Positions 3,785 to 64,000 of a stretch of 64,000 nt of DNA are shown in pieces. The notes beneath the pieces were generated by a model. That model was not told the DNA's origin and ran no database searches. It saw only the letters and a list, made by a program, of their open reading frames with translations. This DNA is from an uncultured Clostridia bacterium (GTDB lineage: Bacteria > Bacillota > Clostridia > TANB77 > CAG-508): positions 7,470 through 71,469 of the forward strand of contig CAQPBJ010000008.1 in NCBI GenBank assembly GCA_948852945.1, given 5' to 3'. Each line of letters opens with the position of its first letter. Positions within the stretch are counted from its first letter, which is position 1. The position numbers were made by a program, and so were the translations under genes.

Positions 3785-4672
3785 ATGAAAAAAATATTAT
3801 TTAAAGGCTGTGGAACAGCTATCGTAACACCATTTGATGAAAATGGTGTAAACTTTAAAGAATTCGAAAAACTAATCGAATTTCAAATTTCAGAAGGAAT
3901 TGATGCTTTAATAGTTTGCGGAACTACTGGTGAAAGTTCTTGTATGACATTAGAAGAAAGAAAACAAACAATAGAATTTGCTGTAAAAATTGCAAACAAA
4001 AGAGTTCCTATAATTGCTGGAACAGGAGCTAATTGTACTAAATCTGCAATAGACTTTACAAAATGGGCAGAATCTGTTGGAGTTGATGGTGCTTTAATAG
4101 TAACTCCATATTACAACAAAACAACTCAAGAAGGCTTAATTGCACATTATACAGCAATTGCCAATTCAACTTCCCTACCTATTATTCTTTATAGCGTACC
4201 TAGTAGAACTGGTGTTAATATTACACCTCAAACTTGTTTAGAACTTTCAAAAATTTCAAACATAGTTGCCATCAAAGAAGCTAGTGGCAACTTATCTCAA
4301 ATTGCTGAAATCAAAGCACTATGCCGTGAAAATTTACACATATATTCTGGAAACGATGATCAAATCGTACCTATTTTATCTTTAGGAGGTCTTGGAGTAA
4401 TCTCTGTATTATCAAATATTGCTCCTAAATTTACTCATGAAATGGTAACAAATTTTTTAAACGGAAAAATAATTGAAAGTACTGATATGCAATTAGATTC
4501 TATTTATTTAACTAAAGCTCTATTTTCAGAAGTAAACCCTATCCCAGTAAAAGCTGCTTTAAATATATTAGGATACAATGTTGGCATTCCTAGATTGCCT
4601 CTTATAGAAATGACAGAAAAAGGTCAAGAAAAATTAAAGCAAGAAATGAAACAATTTGGACTACTAAAATAA
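3785..4672 (+). CDS. dapA: 4-hydroxy-tetrahydrodipicolinate synthase
   Basis: Motifs GTTGES, TPYYNK and AIKEASG. Length 295 aa. Confidence 0.92.
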   Translation: MKKILFKGCGTAIVTPFDENGVNFKEFEKLIEFQISEGIDALIVCGTTGESSCMTLEERKQTIEFAVKIANKRVPIIAGTGANCTKSAIDFTKWAESVGVDGALIVTPYYNKTTQEGLIAHYTAIANSTSLPIILYSVPSRTGVNITPQTCLELSKISNIVAIKEASGNLSQIAEIKALCRENLHIYSGNDDQIVPILSLGGLGVISVLSNIAPKFTHEMVTNFLNGKIIESTDMQLDSIYLTKALFSEVNPIPVKAALNILGYNVGIPRLPLIEMTEKGQEKLKQEMKQFGLLK

Positions 4673-4694: not shown

Positions 4695-5447
4695 ATGATA
4701 AAAGTATTAATAAACGGATGCAATGGAAAAATGGGACAAGAAGTTGTAAATGCTGTTTTAAGAAATGACAAATTTGAAACAGTTTGTGGAGTTGACAGAT
4801 TAGATACTGGTGATAATAACTTTCCTGTATATACTGACACTAACCTAATAAAAGAAACTCCTGATGTAATAATTGATTTCTCTATTCCTGTAGCAACATT
4901 TAAAATATTAGATTATGCTATTTCTAAAAAAATTCCAGTGGTAATTGCTACAACTGGTTTTACTGATGAAGAATTAGTAAAAATAAAAGAGTATTCAAAA
5001 CAAATACCTATTTTTAGATCTGCAAATATGTCTTTTGAAATTAGCTTAATGAGTCATATTGTTTCAGAAATTGCTAAATACTTACCTAAATCAGATATTG
5101 AAATTATTGAAACTCATCATAATAGAAAAGTTGATGCTCCTTCTGGAACTGCATTAGTTTTAGCAGATAAAATTAATGAAACTCTTAACAATGAAAAATA
5201 TTATGAATTTAATAGACATGATAAAAGAGAAAAAAGAAATCCTAAAGAAATTGGTATTCATTCAATTCGTGGAGGAAATGTTGTTGGTGAACATACTGTA
5301 AGTTTCTTTACTGAAACAGAATGTTTTCAAGTTACTCATACAGCTCAATCAAGAGGTGTTTTTGCTGATGGAAGTTTAAGAGCTGCTGAATATTTAGTAG
5401 TTCAAGATCCAGGATTTTATAATATGAATAACATCTTTTCTAAATAA
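4695..5447 (+). CDS. dapB: 4-hydroxy-tetrahydrodipicolinate reductase
   Basis: Motifs GCNGKMG and ETHHNRKVDAPSGTA. The ATG at 4695 follows GGAGG at 4685-4689. The track start at 4683 is a TTG lying on the RBS. Confidence 0.9.
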   Translation: MIKVLINGCNGKMGQEVVNAVLRNDKFETVCGVDRLDTGDNNFPVYTDTNLIKETPDVIIDFSIPVATFKILDYAISKKIPVVIATTGFTDEELVKIKEYSKQIPIFRSANMSFEISLMSHIVSEIAKYLPKSDIEIIETHHNRKVDAPSGTALVLADKINETLNNEKYYEFNRHDKREKRNPKEIGIHSIRGGNVVGEHTVSFFTETECFQVTHTAQSRGVFADGSLRAAEYLVVQDPGFYNMNNIFSK

Positions 5448-5452
5448 TATTG

Positions 5453-5709
5453 TTGTCAATGGGAACGTTCTTTTTTGACAATTAAAATAATTATATATAA
5501 ATAAAATAAGATATAGTTTTTAAAATTTTTCTCTTCGCAATCTCCGAATAAAAAACTCCGTTTTTATATTGTAGATTGCTCAAATTCGCACTTCACGAAA
5601 TTTCATTTCGTTTCGTTTAGTCGTTAGCGCAATTTTAAAACACTATATCTTATTTTATTTATCTTTGCTAATGTTTCATAGTTGTCAAAAAGAACGTCCC
5701 CATAGACAA
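5453..5709 (+). repeat. nested-palindrome intergenic element, copy A (conserved core about 5527-5636)
   Basis: Outer arms 5453-5481 / 5682-5709. Middle arms aaataaaataagatatag... / ...ctatatcttattttattt. The core is shared with copies at 35.5 kb and 63.3 kb. Confidence 0.85.
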
Positions 5710-5713
5710 CATT

Positions 5714-7579
5714 TTATCTATCAAACATGTTGTAATAAATAACTTTCCAATATTCTTGAAGCTTATCATAATAAGGTGACTCTGTATCATTTGTACTATA
5801 CAAATTTCCATCTTTATCTTTATAATACGAATTAGTAATAACAGGTATCTCTTCTCTTAATTCTTTAACATATTTAGTATATGAATCAAGAGGCATATTT
5901 GCTGTTTCTAATAACAAACCTTGAAGATAATTAGGACTCACCTCTATTCCACTTTTTTCTTCAATATCATAATTAGCATATATGAAAAATGGAACTGTAT
6001 GAGAAGCCTCTTCATCTTTGTATATATCAGCTTTTTCGTAATTTTTAAGTTGATCAATATTAGGTTGATGATCCCCAAAGAAAAGCATAATAATTTTTTC
6101 TTCATAATTATCTACAAAATCAAGCAATAATCCAAGTGCTTTATCTGAACCATACTCTAATTGCAAATAACTATTAAGTCCAGCATCTGTTTCTGTGAAA
6201 GTAATTCCATCTGGATCAACTCTATAATAAGGCATATGATTTTCCATTGTTACCAAGAAACTAAAATTCTTTTCATTCTGCTCTTTGTTTCTCATTATTT
6301 CATAATATTCTTCATAAAAAGACCAATCTGTAGGATATTCTCTATATCCATAATCTAATTTAGTCATACTATCATAAAATTTAGAATGATCAAATTTTAA
6401 AAATTTATTATATATTTTCTCTCTACTATACCCACTCTTATCCCATGAATGCATTCCATATGTAGTATAGTCTAAATCATTCATATATGAAACAATGCTA
6501 GGTCTAACTTCAGATGTAATATATTGTTGATATGGCATAGAACCTGATGGTAAAAAAGCTGTAACACTTTGAGTTAAAGCTTCCCATTCAATATTTGCTG
6601 TTCCTCCTCCAAATTGTGAAGAATGCATCGTACCGCTAATAACATTTTCTCTATTTAAAATACTATGATATGTTTCTATTGGATCTGTAGATAATTCTAT
6701 TTTAAAAGATTTTTGTAAATCTGAAAAAGACTCATTCATTACTATTAAAACATTAGGCGAATCAGATGACTCATAATTAGTAGTATCATCTGAATACTGT
6801 TCTAAAATATGTATTACAATTTCTTTATCATAATTTTTAGGTTTACTAACTTTAATATCTTTCGCCATTCTTACTATTGTTAGACCCATTCCAGAATTTG
6901 CATAAGCGTTGTTTATATTCCAAAGCTCAACTGTATCTGTAATATAATTTGGTCCAAAGAAAGCTAAAATACCTACTACCCCTAAAACTATACCTACTAT
7001 TTTAGCACGAGTAGTTCTTATTTCTCTCTTCTCTTTTATCTTTATTTTCCACAAAACTAACATTAATAAAACAAACAAAATTGTAGCTACAATAAAGTTT
7101 CCATCTATTGTTGGTTTTATTCCACTTGCTACATTCATCGCTGTTCTAATTGAATAAATATCAGAAATTGTAACAGAAATTCCTCTTGTTTGTGTAACTA
7201 CATAGTTAATAACGCCAAATATAAATGTAAATGCCGTAATAAAGCCTAAAGCAAATTTAGTTCTATTCGTTAGACCATATATTATCCAGTATATGAAAAC
7301 AAATAAAAGATAATTAGCCCACCATTTAGGTAACTTGAAAAAATCGCTCCAAGTATTTTTTAATCCCTCTGCTCTTTCTGACACAGTAGAAGAAAATCCG
7401 AATATCTTTTGAAATACTACATTATTTCCATTTAAAAATTCAGACATAAAATATAGAAATAAGAAAAATAACATAAGAAATATTAATCTTTTCTTATCTA
7501 ATTTTTTCCATATTCTTTTAATTTTCTCTTTTAGATTTCTAAATCTACTATCTTTAGTTTCTACGTCTTTTTCTTCCAT
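5714..7579 (-). CDS. LTA synthase family protein (polytopic N-terminus plus extracellular sulfatase-like domain)
   Basis: Five or more N-terminal TM helices followed by the MNESFSD, GGGTANIEWE and FFGDHQP motif region. Confidence 0.75.
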   Translation of the reverse strand: MEEKDVETKDSRFRNLKEKIKRIWKKLDKKRLIFLMLFFLFLYFMSEFLNGNNVVFQKIFGFSSTVSERAEGLKNTWSDFFKLPKWWANYLLFVFIYWIIYGLTNRTKFALGFITAFTFIFGVINYVVTQTRGISVTISDIYSIRTAMNVASGIKPTIDGNFIVATILFVLLMLVLWKIKIKEKREIRTTRAKIVGIVLGVVGILAFFGPNYITDTVELWNINNAYANSGMGLTIVRMAKDIKVSKPKNYDKEIVIHILEQYSDDTTNYESSDSPNVLIVMNESFSDLQKSFKIELSTDPIETYHSILNRENVISGTMHSSQFGGGTANIEWEALTQSVTAFLPSGSMPYQQYITSEVRPSIVSYMNDLDYTTYGMHSWDKSGYSREKIYNKFLKFDHSKFYDSMTKLDYGYREYPTDWSFYEEYYEIMRNKEQNEKNFSFLVTMENHMPYYRVDPDGITFTETDAGLNSYLQLEYGSDKALGLLLDFVDNYEEKIIMLFFGDHQPNIDQLKNYEKADIYKDEEASHTVPFFIYANYDIEEKSGIEVSPNYLQGLLLETANMPLDSYTKYVKELREEIPVITNSYYKDKDGNLYSTNDTESPYYDKLQEYWKVIYYNMFDR

Positions 7580-10426: not shown

Positions 10427-11860
10427 TTAACATACTACCTTTTTTGATAATACTTTTTGTTTTACAACATGTAAAATAACTTTAAAAGTTTTCTTATTAA
10501 ATATTATTAAAAATATTATTGAAAGTATAGCTCCAAGTAAATATAAATATATGTTTTTCAAATAATATATTATTAAAATTATACTACTAACAAGTACTGT
10601 CAAAATCACGAAGCTTCTTTCAAGCTTTATTTTTATGTATTTTTGTACATCTATATATCTATAGATTGTCATTATCAAATATGCAACAGCTGTTGAAATT
10701 GAAGCAGCATATAAACCTATATGTTTTATAAGTACTAAATTTACAACAATATTTATAATTGCAGCATAAATAGAAGTTTTTGCAATTTCTTTTGACTTCT
10801 TTAAAGCCACATAAATAGAACCAAATAAAGCTACTGACATATTAAAAATTGTTGAAATTATTAATATCGGAATTTGATAAAATGCACTTGAATATCCTGC
10901 ACCTGTAACTAAAAATTTAAATACAAATGGCATAAATGCAATTATACTTAAACATACAGAAACAAATAATTTTAAAACCGAATTTATTATATTTGAAAAA
11001 TATTTAGAATTATCCTTATCTTTAAAATGTACTGCAGCCGACTCTGTCCATGTTAAATTAAAAATATTAAATATTGTTATAATTATACTTGAAAATTTAT
11101 TTGCTACCGAATAAACACCATTTAGTGCTACTCCGCAAAAGAATAATATTATAGTTCTATCAGAAGCATTTACAATCCACCATGATAATTGATTTGGTAC
11201 TAATGGAATAGCATATTTCCATAACTCTTTCAATTCCATTTTACTAAACATTTTAATTCTAAGACTAGTATATATTTTTTTCTTTATAAAAACATATACT
11301 ATACATATAATATTCGAAATTAAAGTAGCCATTAACATCCCATATGCAGCAAATTTAAATATCACAATAAATATCACATTTAAAATTATTGTACCAGCAC
11401 CAGATAAAAGACTTCCTATGGAGTATGTAATATTGTCTCCAACACCTCTTGATATTTGTAAAAACATACTCGCATACATTGTAGCAACAACATTAGTTGC
11501 TAAAAAATATTTATATTGATTATTAATAAATTGTCCAATAAAAATATAAAACATTATAAAAATAATAGCCTGAATAGTCACTATAATTAATGCTGTAGAC
11601 ATTATTCTCGACTTAGCTTTATCATCATTTCTTACATCTATTAAATTTCTAAAAACTGCTTGATCCATCTGTAAAAATACCAGTGGTATTAATAAAGCAA
11701 TATATGTATTTAATACATCAACAATTCCATATTCTTCTGTTGAAAGTACTGCTGTATATAATGGTAGAAGAAAAAAACTAATAAATTTCGTGCATATTTG
11801 ACCTATCGCAACAATAGCCGTATTTTTTACTAATTGCTTCTCCCTTTTTCCATTTTCCAT
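10427..11860 (-). CDS. polysaccharide flippase (Wzx / MOP superfamily)
   Basis: 477 aa with about 12-14 TM helices, in a cps context. Confidence 0.75.
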   Translation of the reverse strand: MENGKREKQLVKNTAIVAIGQICTKFISFFLLPLYTAVLSTEEYGIVDVLNTYIALLIPLVFLQMDQAVFRNLIDVRNDDKAKSRIMSTALIIVTIQAIIFIMFYIFIGQFINNQYKYFLATNVVATMYASMFLQISRGVGDNITYSIGSLLSGAGTIILNVIFIVIFKFAAYGMLMATLISNIICIVYVFIKKKIYTSLRIKMFSKMELKELWKYAIPLVPNQLSWWIVNASDRTIILFFCGVALNGVYSVANKFSSIIITIFNIFNLTWTESAAVHFKDKDNSKYFSNIINSVLKLFVSVCLSIIAFMPFVFKFLVTGAGYSSAFYQIPILIISTIFNMSVALFGSIYVALKKSKEIAKTSIYAAIINIVVNLVLIKHIGLYAASISTAVAYLIMTIYRYIDVQKYIKIKLERSFVILTVLVSSIILIIYYLKNIYLYLLGAILSIIFLIIFNKKTFKVILHVVKQKVLSKKVVC

Positions 11861-28027: not shown

Positions 28028-28106
28028 AAATTTTCCTCCTTTATAACACTTAATTTATATCAAATAACAAAAAAAATAGCAATATAAAATTTTACTCTTT
28101 TTATAT

Positions 28107-28288
28107 AACTTTAAGGGATAATAATAAAAGTATTTTCACTCTTAGGTAAGTAAGTTTAGAAAATTATAAAAAAAATTCATAGAGATACAGGCGAATGGCC
28201 TGAGAGACTCTATGAATTTTTTTATTCAATTTTCTTAATGAAACGCACCGTAGCCGTGAAAATGCTTTTATTATTATCCCTTAAAGTT
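28107..28288. repeat. nested palindrome (33-bp outer arms with an inner 16-bp hairpin)
   Basis: aactttaagggataataataaaagtattttcac (28107-28139) pairs with gtgaaaatgcttttattattatcccttaaagtt (28256-28288), with one mismatch. Inner hairpin aaaaaaattcatagag / ctctatgaattttttt lies at 28168-28223. Confidence 0.8.
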
Positions 28289-28316
28289 AATTTAATATTA
28301 TATAGTTTTTATATTG

Positions 28317-30179
28317 CTATTTTATTCTTAAAGTTTTCATTGAATTAAGTATTGCTATTATTGAAACTCCTACATCTGCAAAAACCGCAAGCCACATATT
28401 AGCATATCCCATCGCTCCCAAAATCAAAACCGCTATTTTAATTACAAGAGCAAAAATAATATTTTGTTTTACAATTTTCATAGTTGCTTTAGAAATTCTA
28501 ATTGCTTGAGCAATTTTAGTAAGTTCATCAGTCATAATAACAACATCAGCAGCTTCAATAGCAGCATCAGCCCCTATTCCTCCCATTGCAATACCTACAT
28601 CAGCTCTAGCTAAACACGGACTATCATTAATACCATCACCAACAAAAATAACGCTCTGCTTTTTCTTTTTTAATTTCAAAATTTCTTCTAATTTTTCTAA
28701 CTTTTGTTCAGGTAATAAATTTCCAAAACAATTTTCTATACCAACTTCGTTTGCAATTTGTTTAGCAATTTTTTCTTCATCACCTGTTAAAATATAAGAT
28801 CCTTTTACTTTTGCTTTAGTTAAATCAAATATTGCTTCTTTAGCTTCTTTTTTTACTGTATCAGATATTAATATACAGCCTTTATACGTTCCTTCTATAG
28901 CAACATATATAACAGTTCCTGGATTAGCAATTTCTTTAAATTTAATATTATTTTCTTTTAATAGTTTAGCATTTCCAACTAATGTTTCTTTAAAGAATAT
29001 TTTAGCTTTTATTCCTTTGCCTGAAATTTCTTCTAAATTTTCAATCTTTTTATCATCATATTTCCCTGTATATTTATTTTTAATAGAAAGAGCTATTGGG
29101 TGATTAGAAAATTTTTCTGCATGTGCTGCAATCCTTATAAGTTCTTGCTCTGAAATATCAACAGACACTACAGTTTGAATTTCAAAAACACCTTTAGTAA
29201 TAGTTCCAGTTTTATCAAATGCTATATATTTAGCTTTTGATAAAGCTTCTAAATAATTACTTCCTTTAATTAAAATACCATTTTTAGATGCTCCTCCGAT
29301 TCCTCCAAAAAATCCTAATGGCACTGAAATTACTAGAGCACATGGACATGAAATAACTAAAAATGTTAGTGATCTATAAAGCCATTCTGAAAATTCTTGA
29401 TTAAAAATAAAAGGAGGTACAATAGCTAATGCTAAAGCCAAAAAGCAAACTATTGGTGTGTAATATTTAGCAAACTTAGTAATAAATTTTTCTGTTTTAG
29501 CTTTTTTAGATGTTGCATCTTCAACTAATTCTAATATCTTTGAAACAGTTGAATCTTCAAACTTTTTCATAACTTTAGCTTCAACGACTTTATTTAAATT
29601 TATTGTTCCACTATAAATAATTTCTTGTGGTCCTATTGTTTTTGGAACAGGCTCTCCTGTAATAGTTTTAGTATCAAAACTTGATTTTCCTGTTATAATT
29701 CTAGCATCAACAGGAACTTTTTCTCCTGGCTTTATAACTATAGTTTCACCAATTTTTATTTCTTCTGGCTTTACTGAAATTAATTCATTGTTTCGATATA
29801 CATTAGCAGTTTCTGGTTTTATTTGCATTAATTCCTTTATTGCATCTCTAGATTTTCCAACAGCAATAGATTGAAATTCCTCACCTATCTGATATAAAAG
29901 CATTACTGCTATTGCCTCAGGAAATTCTCCTATTACTAGAGCTCCTACTGTTGCAATCATCATAAGGAAATTCTCATCAAATATATTTCCTCTAAATATA
30001 TTTCTTATTGCTTTATTTAAAATATCAATTCCTATTATAAAATAAGATATAAGAAATGATATTACAGATATTAATTTCATTTCATATATACAATTTTCAA
30101 TTTTCATAAATTGAAAAATCACACCTAAAATTGCAAATATAACAGAAAACATAAATCTTATTTTAAAACTTTTTTTCAT
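28317..30179 (-). CDS. cadA: heavy-metal (Cd/Zn-type) translocating P-type ATPase
   Basis: Motifs SCPCALV, DKTGTIT and GDGINDSP. No fused N-terminal HMA domain. Confidence 0.9.
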   Translation of the reverse strand: MKKSFKIRFMFSVIFAILGVIFQFMKIENCIYEMKLISVISFLISYFIIGIDILNKAIRNIFRGNIFDENFLMMIATVGALVIGEFPEAIAVMLLYQIGEEFQSIAVGKSRDAIKELMQIKPETANVYRNNELISVKPEEIKIGETIVIKPGEKVPVDARIITGKSSFDTKTITGEPVPKTIGPQEIIYSGTINLNKVVEAKVMKKFEDSTVSKILELVEDATSKKAKTEKFITKFAKYYTPIVCFLALALAIVPPFIFNQEFSEWLYRSLTFLVISCPCALVISVPLGFFGGIGGASKNGILIKGSNYLEALSKAKYIAFDKTGTITKGVFEIQTVVSVDISEQELIRIAAHAEKFSNHPIALSIKNKYTGKYDDKKIENLEEISGKGIKAKIFFKETLVGNAKLLKENNIKFKEIANPGTVIYVAIEGTYKGCILISDTVKKEAKEAIFDLTKAKVKGSYILTGDEEKIAKQIANEVGIENCFGNLLPEQKLEKLEEILKLKKKKQSVIFVGDGINDSPCLARADVGIAMGGIGADAAIEAADVVIMTDELTKIAQAIRISKATMKIVKQNIIFALVIKIAVLILGAMGYANMWLAVFADVGVSIIAILNSMKTLRIK

Positions 30180-35470: not shown

Positions 35471-35792
35471 AAATACTGCCAGTTCAATGCTCTTTTAGAG
35501 AGTAAGTAAAAAATATTAATTTAAAAAAACATAAAATAATTATAAATAAAATAATGTATAGTTTTCAAAATTTTGCTCTTCGCAATCTCCGAATAAAAAA
35601 CTCCGTTTTTATATTGTAGATTGCTCAAATTCGCACTTCGATAAACTTTGTTTATCTACGTTTGGTCGCTAGCGCAATTTTAAAAACTATACATTATTTT
35701 ATTTATTATTTTCTTTACTTATATTTTTATATTAAAAGGCTATTCTTAATTAAATACTTACTCTCTAAAAGAGCATTGAACTGGCAATATTT
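35471..35792 (+). repeat. nested-palindrome intergenic element, copy B (core about 35574-35681)
   Basis: 38-bp outer arms 35471-35508 / 35755-35792 with one mismatch. Same core as copies A and C. Confidence 0.85.
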
Positions 35793-35798
35793 GTTCTA

Positions 35799-37251
35799 TT
35801 ACAATTTTACATATACTGATGCAGTACCTCCTGAAACTTGAAAAACACCAAAACCTTCTTCATCAATTTCAATTTCTTCTTCTCTATGTCCTAGTGCATC
35901 AACAAATTTTTCACCAGCAAAATTTGTTCCAACATACATTCTCTTACAGCCATCATATTTATCAGAAATTATTACAGCTAAACCAGACTTATTATGTTCC
36001 TCATTTCCAAGTCTAGTAAAGCCAACTATATTATAATCATCAAAATAATCAACTTGTTCTCCATAAGCCTTATCTTTTCTAAGAAGTAATAATGTTTTTA
36101 AACTTTCCATTGGTTCTATCCCATCATGTTCTATTCCATAATAATCACCATAAAAAACACAAGGATATCCTTCTTTTCTCAAAAGAATTATTGAATACGC
36201 AATCTCTTTAAACCACATAGGAATCCATGATTCAAGAGCTTGTCCGTGGTTGAGTATCATGATTATCTACAAAAGTAACTGCTCTGCCCCAATTTTCTTT
36301 TAGCAATGTATTATCTAATATTTTAGACATGTCATATTCTCCATTTGAATTAGCCGCATGATAAAAATTATAATGTAATGGTACATCAAATAAAGACATT
36401 CCTCCTTCGGTCATATCAATGTATTTTTTTAATTCATTTATATTAGCATTCCAATATTCACCAACACAAAATAGCTCCCTAGTAGATTTTTCTCTCATTT
36501 GTTTTACAAACTTTTTCATAAATTCTGCATCTATATGTTTAACAGCATCAAATCTTAATCCATCTACATCTGTCATTTCTAAATACCATTTTCCCCATTT
36601 AATGCATTCATCTACTACTTCTTGATTATCAAAATCTATATCTGCTCCCATTAAATAATCAAAATTTCCATGTTCTCCATCAACATTCATTTGCCATGTT
36701 TTATTTTTTAATTTATATAAAGCAACTTCTTTAGTTCTCGAATTATAGTCTATTCCTGTAAAATGTGTCCAATTCCATTCAAAATCTGAATATTTATGAT
36801 CTCTTCCTGGAAAAGTAAACTTAGTCCATACTTCAACAGTTTCTTCTTCTCCGTTTTCTTGAACTCTATTTTCCCAATCACACTTAACAGCTTTAATAGT
36901 TTGTAATTTATCAGCACCCATTTTATGATTTAACACAACATCAGCATACACATCAATTCCTTGTTGCTGAAGTGCTTTAATAGCTAATAAATATTCATCT
37001 TTAGTTCCATATTTAGTAGCTATTGATCCTTTTTGCTCAAACTCTCCTAAATCATATAAATCGTATACCCCATATCCAACTTCTTTTTCTCCTCCACATC
37101 CTTTATATGCTGGTGGTAGCCAAATGGCAGTAATACCATATTTAGCGATATCTTCAACTCTTTTACCAACTGTATTCCACAAATTTTTATTGCAATTTAA
37201 ATACCATTCAAAATATTGCATCATTACTCCATTGATTTCTTTGTTCATCAT
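35799..37251 (-). pseudogene. cytoplasmic GH13 alpha-amylase, split by a 1-nt insertion
   Basis: Motifs GITAIWLPPAYKG, DVVLNHK, GLRFDAVKHI and FVDNHDTQP, then R-T-S-S-stop. The other frame continues GQALESW...GYPCVFYGDYYG. An extra base near 36246 causes the shift. Confidence 0.8.
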
Positions 37252-37261
37252 TTCCCCCTTA

Positions 37262-37792
37262 TTACTCAGCATTTTTTATTTCTTGTATTTTTTCATTTTT
37301 TTGAAGTTCTGGCTCTAAAAATTTAAAACATTTTTTATTTTTATCCATAACCTTTATTCCAACATCTAAATCATTTCTCATTCTTTTACTAGCATATTTT
37401 ACAATAATTGGCTTATCCTCAATTGCTTTCATAACAACATCTTTATCATCTCTCATTTCAGGAGATGCAAAATATAAAATCTGACCAGATTTTTCTAATC
37501 CTGCAAGCAATAATTCTTTATCATTCTTTAAACTTTCATCAACATAACAGTATGTCCATCCTAACTTGCTAACAGATTCATATACAATTTCTCTATCTTT
37601 TTTTAAATCAAAGCTTGCAAATTCTAAGGCTTCTGGATTATTTTTAACCGCAGCTAATACAACTTCTCTATCATTATGGAAATTATCATCTGCAAATTCT
37701 AGCAATTTTCCATTTTCATTTACTGTTTTTAAAACATATTCTCTATTACTAGCATTTTCTTTCATTGCTGTTATTTCTGGTGCCTCTGGCAT
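37262..37792 (-). CDS. DUF4116-like repeat protein
   Basis: Repeated units of the form ...ALEFASFDLKKDREIV..., ...LYFASPEMRDDKDVV... and ...VKYASKRMRNDLDV... Confidence 0.6.
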   Translation of the reverse strand: MPEAPEITAMKENASNREYVLKTVNENGKLLEFADDNFHNDREVVLAAVKNNPEALEFASFDLKKDREIVYESVSKLGWTYCYVDESLKNDKELLLAGLEKSGQILYFASPEMRDDKDVVMKAIEDKPIIVKYASKRMRNDLDVGIKVMDKNKKCFKFLEPELQKNEKIQEIKNAE

Positions 37793-38711: not shown

Positions 38712-38717
38712 CATATT

Positions 38718-39080
38718 ACAAAGTAAGTCTATAAGCCGGGTTCTGTCTTGAATAGCCATTTATCTAGAATATATATTGCTATATATTTCAAGCCACCTAC
38801 TATATATAAAAGAAACGAGCAGTTTTTAATCTTTTACTTAAACTAGTGGTGTTGCTCCAGGTGGGGTTTACACGAACAAGGAATGTCACCATTCCTCCGG
38901 TGAGCTCTTACCTCCCCTTTTCAACCTTACCAATAATATTGGCGGTAATTTTCTGTTGCACTTTCCTTAAGGTTTCCCTCACTAGACGTTATCTAGCACC
39001 ATTGCTCTATGGAGCCCGGACTTTCCTCTCATGGAACCTTACGGTTATCATCAGCGACTATTCGGCTTACTCTTTATCTA
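38718..39080 (-). ncRNA. rnpB: RNase P RNA (bacterial type B)
   Basis: The minus strand reads GAGGAAAGTCCGGGCTCC (39028-39011) near the 5' end and ACAGAACCCGGCTTAT (38746-38731) near the 3' end. The P1 arms are complementary. Ends are approximate. Confidence 0.9.
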
Positions 39081-39392: not shown

Positions 39393-39496
39393 AAACAAGT
39401 ATTGCTAGGCACAAAGATAATTAATATTACGAGGCGTACTCTTGTACGTCGCAGTAATTTAATTATCTTTGTAACAACGCAAGACGCCGTTTATTT

Positions 39497-41660: not shown

Positions 41661-41766
41661 AAACAAGTATTGCTAGGCGCAAAGATAATTAATATTACGA
41701 GGTGTACAATTGTACTCCGCAGTAATTTAATTATCTTTGCAACAACGCAAGACGCAGTTTATTTTT
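41661..41766 (-). repeat. 106-nt hairpin repeat, copy 2 (3' of pgsA)
   Basis: See copy 1. The pgsA stop codon (41759-41761) lies inside the repeat. Confidence 0.8.
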
Positions 41767-46476: not shown

Positions 46477-46552
46477 GCCATTATAGCTCAGTTGGTAGAG
46501 CAACAGATTCGTAACCTGTAGGCCGGCAGTTCAATTCTGCCTAATGGCTCCA
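46477..46552 (+). tRNA. tRNA-Thr (anticodon CGT), encoded CCA
   Basis: Acceptor gccatta pairs with taatggc. D-arm is gctc agttggta gagc. The anticodon loop is ttcgtaa and the T-arm is ggcag ttcaatt ctgcc. Confidence 0.88.
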
Positions 46553-63104: not shown

Positions 63105-63188
63105 AAATAATGTAATCCTTTCTCTTTTTTTCCTATATTATTATATATTTTCTGCTTTTCTTTGTAAAGAAATTTCATAAATAAAAAT

Positions 63189-63454
63189 AATTGTCAGTGG
63201 AGACGTCCTTTTTTGACAATTTATAAAAATAATTCTATATATAAATAAAATAAGATATAATTTTTAAAATTGCGCTAGCGACCAAACGAAAGCAAACTTT
63301 GTTTGCTGAAGTGCGAATTTGAGCAATCTACAATATAAAAACGGAGTTTTTTATTCGGAGATTGCGAAGAGCAAAATTTTGAAAATTATATCTTATTTTA
63401 TTTATTCTATTTTTGTTTGGTAATTGTCAAAAAAGGACGTCTCCACTGACAATT
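63189..63454 (-). repeat. nested-palindrome intergenic element, copy C (core about 63267-63376, inverted relative to A and B)
   Basis: 33-bp outer arms 63189-63221 / 63422-63454 are perfectly complementary. The core is the reverse complement of the cores in copies A and B. Confidence 0.85.
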
Positions 63455-64000
63455 ATTTTACCAATTTATAATATACTTTTTTGCCTTTTCTAATTATTGC
63501 ATATCCATTTGAAAAATCTTCTTCTTTTAAGGTATATCCAATATCAGAAATTTTCTCATCATTTAATGTAATAGCTCCTTGCATAATTAATGTTTTAGCT
63601 TGTCCTTTTGATGGAGCCATTCCTATATCTACAATTACCTGTACAATAGGTATATTTACTTCTGTAGTTTTAGCTTCCATTGCATCAACATTTCCATTAC
63701 CTGCAAACATAGCATTTGTAGCTTCTTCTGCTTTTTTAGCTTCATCTTCTCCATGCACTAATTTAGTAATTTCAAATGCAGCTACCTTTTTAGCTTCATT
63801 AATACGTTCATCTTTATATTTAGTCATTTCTTCAATTTCTTCTGGATCAATAAATGTTAATAATTTCATAACATTTTCTATATCTTCATCAGCCACATTT
63901 CTCCAGTATTGGTAAAATTCATATGGTGATGTTTTTTCTGAATTTAACCATAATGCACCTTTTTCTGTTTTACCCATTTTCTTACCTTCTTTTGTTGTAA
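63453..64000 (-). CDS. tyrS: tyrosine--tRNA ligase, C-terminal part (continues past the window edge)
   Basis: GKTEKGALWLNSEKTSPYEFYQYWRNV and a C-terminal S4-like domain. Confidence 0.85.
   Translation of the reverse strand, partial: TTKEGKKMGKTEKGALWLNSEKTSPYEFYQYWRNVADEDIENVMKLLTFIDPEEIEEMTKYKDERINEAKKVAAFEITKLVHGEDEAKKAEEATNAMFAGNGNVDAMEAKTTEVNIPIVQVIVDIGMAPSKGQAKTLIMQGAITLNDEKISDIGYTLKEEDFSNGYAIIRKGKKVYYKLVK

Follow-up and report, generated by a model that had tools for sequence, protein, structure and literature searches.

The window, by which we mean the whole 64-kb stretch of DNA analysed here, has a GC content of 27% and comes from a lineage represented by an uncultured Clostridia MAG that carries a Spo0A_C-domain gene. 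It contains three copies of a nested palindrome, at the positions where an earlier, sequence-only reading had placed them and with the nested arms that it had described, a common core of ~105 nt and a covarying 7-bp hairpin. Copy A lies on the + strand, in the gap between dapB and a sulfatase gene. Its left outer arm (5453–5481, TTGTCAATGGGAACGTTCTTTTTTGACAA) forms an inverted repeat with the right outer arm (5682–5709), the two being ~92% complementary. Inside these arms are a left inner arm of 30 nt with an A-rich distal half (5497–5526), the conserved core (5527–5632) and a right inner arm with a T-rich distal half (5633–5662). The core is made up of a closing stem, hairpin 1 (5537–5579), a linker (TCAAATTCGCAC), the variable hairpin 2 (5595–5611) and a 3ʹ segment (CGTTTAGTCGTTAGCGCAA). 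That reading had also reported no ATG-started open reading frame (ORF). The sole ORF that crosses the core of copy A, 30 aa long, is indeed TTG-started, but other short ORFs, of 21–47 aa, overlap the copy.

Copy B, also on the + strand, has a left outer arm at 35474–35508 that is unique to its locus, a left inner arm at 35542–35571, a core at 35572–35677, and right inner and outer arms at 35678–35707 and 35755–35789. Copy C is on the – strand. Its core (63270–63375) is flanked on the 5ʹ side by an inner arm (63376–63405) and an outer arm (63411–63459), the last 7 nt of which overlap the end of the tyrS reading frame, and on the 3ʹ, low-coordinate side by an inner arm (63241–63269) and an outer arm (63184–63232). 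A 43-nt probe from the core matched exactly at 5537–5579 (+), 35582–35624 (+) and 63323–63365 (–), and in none of 100 shuffles. Hairpin 2 has the sequence previously noted in each copy: ACGAAAT-TTC-ATTTCGT in A, GATAAAC-TTT-GTTTATC in B and AGCAAAC-AAA-GTTTGCT in C. The inner arms of copy A are shared with copies B and C, and the differences among them are matched on the partner arm, which bears out the compensatory arm changes seen at the outset.

Several other features of the window are of interest in their own right. A second nested palindrome of ~257 nt (28070–28326), with an unrelated centre (…CTCTATGAATTTTTTTAT around ATACAGGCGAATGGCCTGAGAGA), fills a 289-nt gap upstream of a P-type ATPase gene; at the corresponding place in a syntenic contig (L049) the gap is only 130 nt. 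It may represent a further hairpin insertion, from a different family. Two copies of a near-perfect 62-nt palindrome (ACAAAGATAATTAATATTACGAGG.GTAC…), at 39411–39472 and 41679–41740, directly follow the stop codons of a DNA ligase gene and of the next gene upstream. They constitute a second repeated family of terminator-like palindromes, and L049 has ordinary, unrelated terminators at both places. Just beyond copy B, an alpha-amylase gene is split into two overlapping ORFs (35799–36260 and 36232–37272). The split is also present in a sister lineage (L047 and L048), and the gene is intact, encoding 482 aa, in L049; possible explanations are a frameshift common to both, a pseudogene or recoding. 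The class A RNase P RNA (38716–39073, –) and two tRNA genes (858–937 and 46477–46549, both +) are landmarks unrelated to the element.

A census of public data added about 25 copies to the three found in the 64-kb window (at least 25 in metagenome and MAG contigs of related uncultured Clostridia). Searching metagenomes with a 25-mer of hairpin 1 gave 22 copies at 21 loci. BLAST and nhmmer added one divergent copy (L015:7324–7429) and one deletion derivative (L022:3966–4026, –), and a gapped pattern on the 3ʹ half of the core found two more divergent copies, L044 and L045, both in MAGs labelled “uncultured Clostridium sp.”. A 38-mer of hairpin 1 had no match in the genome collection. The deletion derivative lacks hairpin 1 and the linker and has perfect arms of ~30 bp; the endpoints of its deletion fall in TTCGCA direct repeats that border hairpin 1. 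Upstream of the divergent copy in L045, the left arm and first core bases (…GATTATTTAATTAAAAATTTGCTG) occur twice in tandem, 111 nt apart (positions 1–166). Contigs of other assemblies break inside the element, and the element thereby breaks short-read assemblies of these gut Clostridia.

The element is 168–330 bp long. Each copy comprises the core, an inner stem of ~30 bp, unpaired spacers of 13–48 nt on each side and an outer stem of 12–35 bp; the inner arms are close to 30 bp in nearly all copies. These lengths come from an anchored alignment, minimum free energy folding of whole flanks being useless in such AT-rich DNA. Core and arms differ sharply in how they are conserved. Mean pairwise identity is ~0.96 over the 5ʹ 68 nt of the core, whereas the distal 18 nt of the inner arms are only 0.65 identical between copies, as against 0.61 for shuffled sequence, even though the two inner arms within one copy are 0.94–0.96 complementary. 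The arms nevertheless fall into loose subfamilies, for example AAATAAAATAAG... and ATCTTAAT...TTTAATAAAT. Flanking positions 2–4, next to the core, are nearly fixed, being A:T in 25–26 of 26 copies (AAA...TTT, usually AAAT...ATTT). At position 1, 18 of the 26 have T:A and six have A:T. These same bases form the base of the stem. In ~14 of 26 copies the inner stem has a C-A/A-C mismatch 6–7 nt outside the core on each side, whatever the arm sequence, and this recurrent mismatch dominates the 15 A-C mismatches counted in the arms, as compared with eight G-T wobbles. Several right arms also share a recurrent AAAGCTTATA.

Copies A, B, C, L015b and L023 have the same inner arm at five unrelated loci, and hence the arms travel with the core. 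The outer-arm type of copy A is likewise found in copy C, in L015b (L015:7248–7508) and in L023, all at unrelated loci, whereas copy B shares only the inner part. The mobile unit thus seems to vary in extent among copies. Searches for solo outer arms found none.

Comparison with related lineages points to insertion. All recovered strains of the species carry the element at both A and C. In sister lineages, the three sites that are empty (A, B and a further one described below) hold only a gap of 22–69 nt with an ordinary bidirectional terminator. At site A, the dapB-sulfatase gap is 65 nt in a relative with 87% DapB identity and 69 nt in one with 76% (L040 and L043; terminator at 10754–10822). 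At site B, the gap is 65 nt in L047 (90% identity; 4181–4245) and 32 nt in L049 (76%; 10985–11016). The terminators at both empty sites are simple, bidirectional and unlike the arms of the element. The third site, in L026, lies between a patatin-like gene and a Coat_F gene. Here L051 and L052, with 91% identity in the patatin-like protein, have an empty gap of 44 nt with the terminator AAAAACAATCAAC-TATA-GTTGATTGTTTT (L051:3347–3390), and the outgroup (L053 and L054) has an empty gap of 22 nt with a different terminator (L053:3350–3371). Relative to L051, the block inserted in L026 consists of 31 + 106 + 31 nt, and ~13 nt of the 3ʹ arm of the native terminator have been lost. This is the one junction resolved to the base, and no direct repeat indicative of a target-site duplication is present there. 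Since the sister lineages have short, terminator-bearing gaps and nothing more, we conclude that the element is an insertion that replaces native terminators. This backs one half of the initial guess, which was a structured 3ʹ-end RNA, a mobile element in terminator position, or both.

Native terminators at the same site are themselves unrelated between lineages whose proteins differ by 9–13% (site B and L026) or, at site A, by up to 24%. Terminator hairpins in the clade that carries the element turn over very fast.

The shape of the element is consistent with the position that it occupies. The distal part of the 5ʹ arm is A-rich (57% A) and that of the 3ʹ arm T-rich (57% T), a bias seen in 25 of 25 copies, A outnumbering T. 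Bidirectional intrinsic terminators have the same polarity, readable from either strand. Against a role in termination, a scan for the consensus form (a compact GC hairpin with a loop of 3–8 nt) gives no canonical terminator in copy A and only the small hairpin 2 in copy C. Because occupied alleles hold no other terminator, the element probably supplies termination itself, and its shape suggests that it probably takes over bidirectional termination or protection of 3ʹ ends.

Could the core alone be mobile, inserting at the tips of long palindromes that were already present, such as the loops of terminator hairpins, so that the arms are merely the target? IS1397, for instance, targets the loops of REP sequences. 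Such targeting would account for the many copies whose arms are locus-specific, and the near-fixed flanking positions 2–4 could then reflect a target preference. It also fits with outermost arms that are frequently next to stop codons or overlap them and that contain T tracts, as native terminators do (for example the terminator-like outer arms L015:2257–2271 and 2490–2504, at the end of an adjacent 1113-aa ORF), and with the abundance of long palindromes with small loops in the genome from which the window comes. It does not fit with the sharing of one 30-bp inner arm among five unrelated loci, nor with the short terminators, unlike the arms, at the empty alleles of A, B and L026. Moreover, a search for left and right arms joined without a core found no match to any arm pair in ~480 kb, and a uniform arm length of 30 bp is unexpected for random targets. 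We judge movement of the core by itself to be improbable.

All copies share one core layout: TTTGCTCTTCGC, hairpin 1, TCAAATTCGCAC, a variable region and CGTTTGGTCGCTAGCGCA. Copies A–C each fold over their whole length as a single long nested hairpin (–87 to –108 kcal/mol; the z-scores relative to shuffled sequences are –14.5 to –16). In an alignment of 24 family members, 96.5% of paired cells are complementary, compared with 86.1% in shuffles, and 20 pairs are changed on both sides, including all seven of the small hairpin 2. The covariation score is 0.244, as against 0.065 for shuffles (none of 500 reaches 0.244) and at most 0.045 for slid controls. The stem of hairpin 1 covaries as well: L015b has CCTT/AAGG, and L044 has CCATA/TATGG, in place of CCGA/TTG. 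The outer stem of hairpin 1 in L045 is GCAATTT/AAATTGC, and its apex is an unrelated GC hairpin, AAAAAAAAGGC-TTCG-GCCTTTTTT.

The variable region has three forms. The first is the 7-bp hairpin, NNNAAAY-loop-RTTTNNN. The second, which we call class II, is the non-hairpin sequence ACTCACTTTGTTCGTT, and at least five copies of this kind are without hairpin 2. The third is a stem with a 70-nt insert of two hairpins in the hairpin 2 loop (L013:3995–4075, L017:3868–3936 and L029:7267–7335). These three represent two distinct sites, L017 and L029 being the same locus, and the 70-nt module was not found elsewhere in the DNA that was fetched.

Copy A departs from the consensus of the family at 5530 (T), 5619 (A) and 5624 (T), three sites that all vary among strains. 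Across eight strains, 20 sites segregate in 6 kb around site A. Four of them fall in the 106-nt core (5530, 5546, 5619 and 5624), where ~0.35 are expected (Poisson P ~5e-4), and none falls in the arms; site C shows no variation among strains. The concentration of variation in the core at site A hints at gene conversion among paralogous cores, or it may reflect decay of copy A. Arms that are identical among strains rule out a function as guides or spacers.

A conserved core with covarying stems invites a different explanation, in which the core functions as a structured non-coding RNA present in multiple copies. In this scenario the arms would form a stalk for processing, cleaved perhaps by RNase III as the stems on either side of rRNAs are, and would so release the core from read-through transcripts; the dispersal of the DNA would be a secondary matter. 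The nucleotides of junctions and linker do not vary, while the stems covary. The exchanged hairpin 1 apex of L045, the replaced stem pairs of L015b and L044, and the tolerance of hairpin 2 for a 70-nt expansion are all as expected for an RNA. The same is true of three invariant G-U pairs on the sense strand, of the substitutions in the 3ʹ part of copy A (5619 and 5624), which keep the proposed P3, between GCACU and GGU-CGC, paired through wobbles, and of hairpin 2 followed by TTTCGTTTGG, which in copy C scores as a weak terminator. Two observations count against a MITE-like origin: the G-U wobbles favour one strand, and ~88 nt of the core, loops included, are near-perfect even though the arms differ by >30%, as they would be in a functional RNA.

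Other evidence is difficult to reconcile with an RNA. Among copies located between co-directional genes, the core is sense in six and antisense in six, so that its orientation is unbiased relative to host transcription. This also overturns, at the level of the family, the rule drawn from the window that the core is sense to the gene whose stop codon abuts it. Within the window it is obeyed only because convergent genes flank two of the three sites, and it is uninformative for copies A and B since a stop codon abuts each of them on both sides. In copies A and C, the two that were scanned, we detected no convincing or common promoter in the arms or core; there is a loose TATA-like motif 8–13 nt before the core. 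In all five copies tested, the antisense strand folds better than the sense strand, by 2–5 kcal/mol, with an alternative stem that pairs UUGCGCU with AGUGCGA. The core alone has fold z-scores of just –1.9 to –3.5, the class II copies dispense with hairpin 2, the derivative that has lost hairpin 1 retains its arms, and no relative is present in Rfam. A dedicated 3ʹ-end RNA, the other half of the initial guess, thus lacks the support that the mobile half has, given the absence of an orientation preference and of a conserved promoter in A and C, and the slightly better fold of the antisense strand. We consider a non-coding RNA as the primary identity of the core possible but unlikely, while noting that an RNA and a mobile hairpin are not mutually exclusive. 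A leader or riboswitch role was rejected, as the core is often followed by a convergent gene.

The balanced orientations also raise the possibility of an invertible DNA switch, in which the inverted arms are recombination sites that flip the core. Inverted repeats do flank a conserved segment directly, and the 3-nt loop of hairpin 2 is found either way round, as AAA (copy C and L012) or as TTT (L018 and L019). However, a single orientation is found in eight assemblies at site A and in seven at site C, although assemblies show the majority state only, and the core contains no convincing promoter. No single site-specific recombinase could recognise every copy, given that the arms vary in sequence. 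An invertible switch is therefore very improbable.

How do the two sides of the hairpin stay complementary while their sequence drifts? The L026 locus suggests an answer. Its outer arms, of 22 nt, fall within the ends of the coding sequences on both sides. The end of the patatin-like gene has changed from TAGACAAACTAAAAAA (RQTKK) to TAACCAAGCTAAACAA (NQAKQ) through four clustered substitutions that alter the encoded amino acids. We polarised the change with the outgroup: the ancestral RQTKK end is kept in L051, L053 and more distant homologues, and the Coat_F end (…LNQAKQKFQNQ) is itself ancestral, since the outgroup has the identical sequence. The substitutions raise the complementarity of the patatin end to the ancestral Coat_F end from 12 of 16 positions to 16 of 16. 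There is also one synonymous change in Coat_F toward the patatin arm. At this locus, the pattern of substitutions suggests a single templated copying event, which would explain it more simply than four selected point mutations. Where arms can be copied from one another in this way, a “compensatory” change need not mean selection at the RNA level.

Template switching at quasipalindromes, described by Ripley and by the Lovett laboratory, reportedly perfects an imperfect inverted repeat in one stroke through a cluster of substitutions. The end of the patatin-like gene in L026, made perfect by clustered substitutions, resembles this closely. In the known cases the arms are a few bases apart. In L026, by contrast, they are separated by ~240 nt and would be brought together only by the folded element, and the change rewrote a five-residue stretch of protein.

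As far as searched, the element is absent from existing catalogues. Rfam 15 gave no match over the element at the gathering score for the whole window, or at E ≤ 10 for positions 5400–5760, in agreement with the initial impression that it belongs to no named RNA family. No match was obtained in scans of viral contigs or by blastn against plasmids and phages, and literature searches by keyword and by literal sequence string returned nothing relevant. We class the element with the MITE-like palindromic repeats and assign it to no named family. It is short and non-coding, has dispersed copies, and is present in some genomes and absent from related ones, as MITEs are. It is unlike them in lacking sequence-conserved terminal inverted repeats and, at the single resolved junction, a target-site duplication. 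Also counter to a MITE-like origin, the element is conserved in its centre and not at its termini, opposite to what is seen in ordinary MITEs.

Other families of bacterial palindromic repeats share some of these features. Correia elements (NEMIS) of Neisseria and ERIC/IRU sequences of enterobacteria are intergenic imperfect palindromes of 100–300 bp with no ORF, present in tens of copies, in either orientation near gene ends and with variants that carry internal insertions or deletions. They are thought to act as terminators or as RNA-stability hairpins when co-transcribed, and compensatory changes have been reported for ERIC. In these families the sequence of the terminal inverted repeats is conserved, and Correia elements generate a TA duplication. 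Our element is likewise an intergenic palindromic repeat found in both orientations and with internal indel variants, but its termini vary while its centre is fixed, and the resolved junction has no duplication. REPINs (PMC3337134) are long hairpins of two inverted halves, non-autonomous, intergenic and mobilised by RAYT transposases, that form a population within a genome; IS200/IS605-derived palindrome-associated elements (PMC6006769) are a further comparison system. In REPINs the arms (REP units) are conserved and the spacer is variable, whereas the present element has the reverse arrangement, with variable arms and a conserved, structured 105-nt centre.

IS200/IS605-derived elements contain single-strand hairpins, make no target duplication, have a short conserved flank, show a replication-linked strand bias and are without flanking inverted repeats. 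Our element resembles them in its internal hairpins and perhaps also in the lack of a duplication at the one resolved junction (L026) and in its short conserved flank, usually AAAT, the bases of which also form the base of its stem. It is unlike them in always having long arms and in an orientation that is unbiased (six versus six, with co-directional genes as a proxy for replication), and its hairpins 1 and 2 are dissimilar, unlike two ends bound by one TnpA. We found no tnpA or tnpB partner. With bidirectional intrinsic terminators it has in common the A-rich 5ʹ and T-rich 3ʹ flanks on either strand and the sites where relatives have their terminators, but its stem is AT-rich and closes a folded insert of 105 nt instead of a loop of 3–8 nt.

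Taken together, we think it probable, with some reserve, that the element is a MITE-like mobile hairpin of uncultured low-GC Clostridia in the shape of a terminator, with a fixed structured centre and free stem sequence, that replaces terminators and whose palindrome is kept and extended by templated copying. The unit that moves would be a hairpin with the near-fixed core of ~105 nt at the apex of a stem of ~30 bp, a stem that retains nothing but its complementarity and its A-rich 5ʹ and T-rich 3ʹ polarity. It would land in short gaps after gene ends and replace the native intrinsic terminator. A family with a fixed centre and free ends cannot depend on terminal repeats being read by a transposase; most likely, the core is a cis-acting module for a mobilising enzyme that acts in trans. 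No transposase, partner gene or autonomous element with the same ends was found at 21 metagenome loci and two genome loci or in plasmids, phages and viral contigs, in pattern scans for autonomous elements that required the short form or exact core words. After insertion, copying of one side from the other would keep the two sides of the hairpin complementary, and the same copying, akin to template switching at quasipalindromes, would extend the palindrome outward into flanking DNA. From the one locus where such copying is seen, L026, we infer that it operates on all outer arms; it would then account for the nested outer arms as well as for the “compensatory” changes.

More tentatively, this might be a bacterial mobile element of a sort not described before, one that has a fixed, folded 105-nt centre as its identity, moves as a hairpin with a free stem, displaces terminators and enlarges its own palindrome by copying one flank onto the other, even rewriting the C-terminal codons of neighbouring genes. 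We hold this broader claim to be doubtful as it stands. Small palindromic repeats are common in bacteria, and their movement and function are mostly obscure. In the family described here, native terminators are seen to be swapped out within closely related lineages, and L026 offers a natural case for the study of template-switch mutagenesis, terminator turnover and hairpin-based mobility. On the broader reading, the element would be a selfish hairpin that is the driver of terminator turnover as well as of templated mutation in its vicinity.
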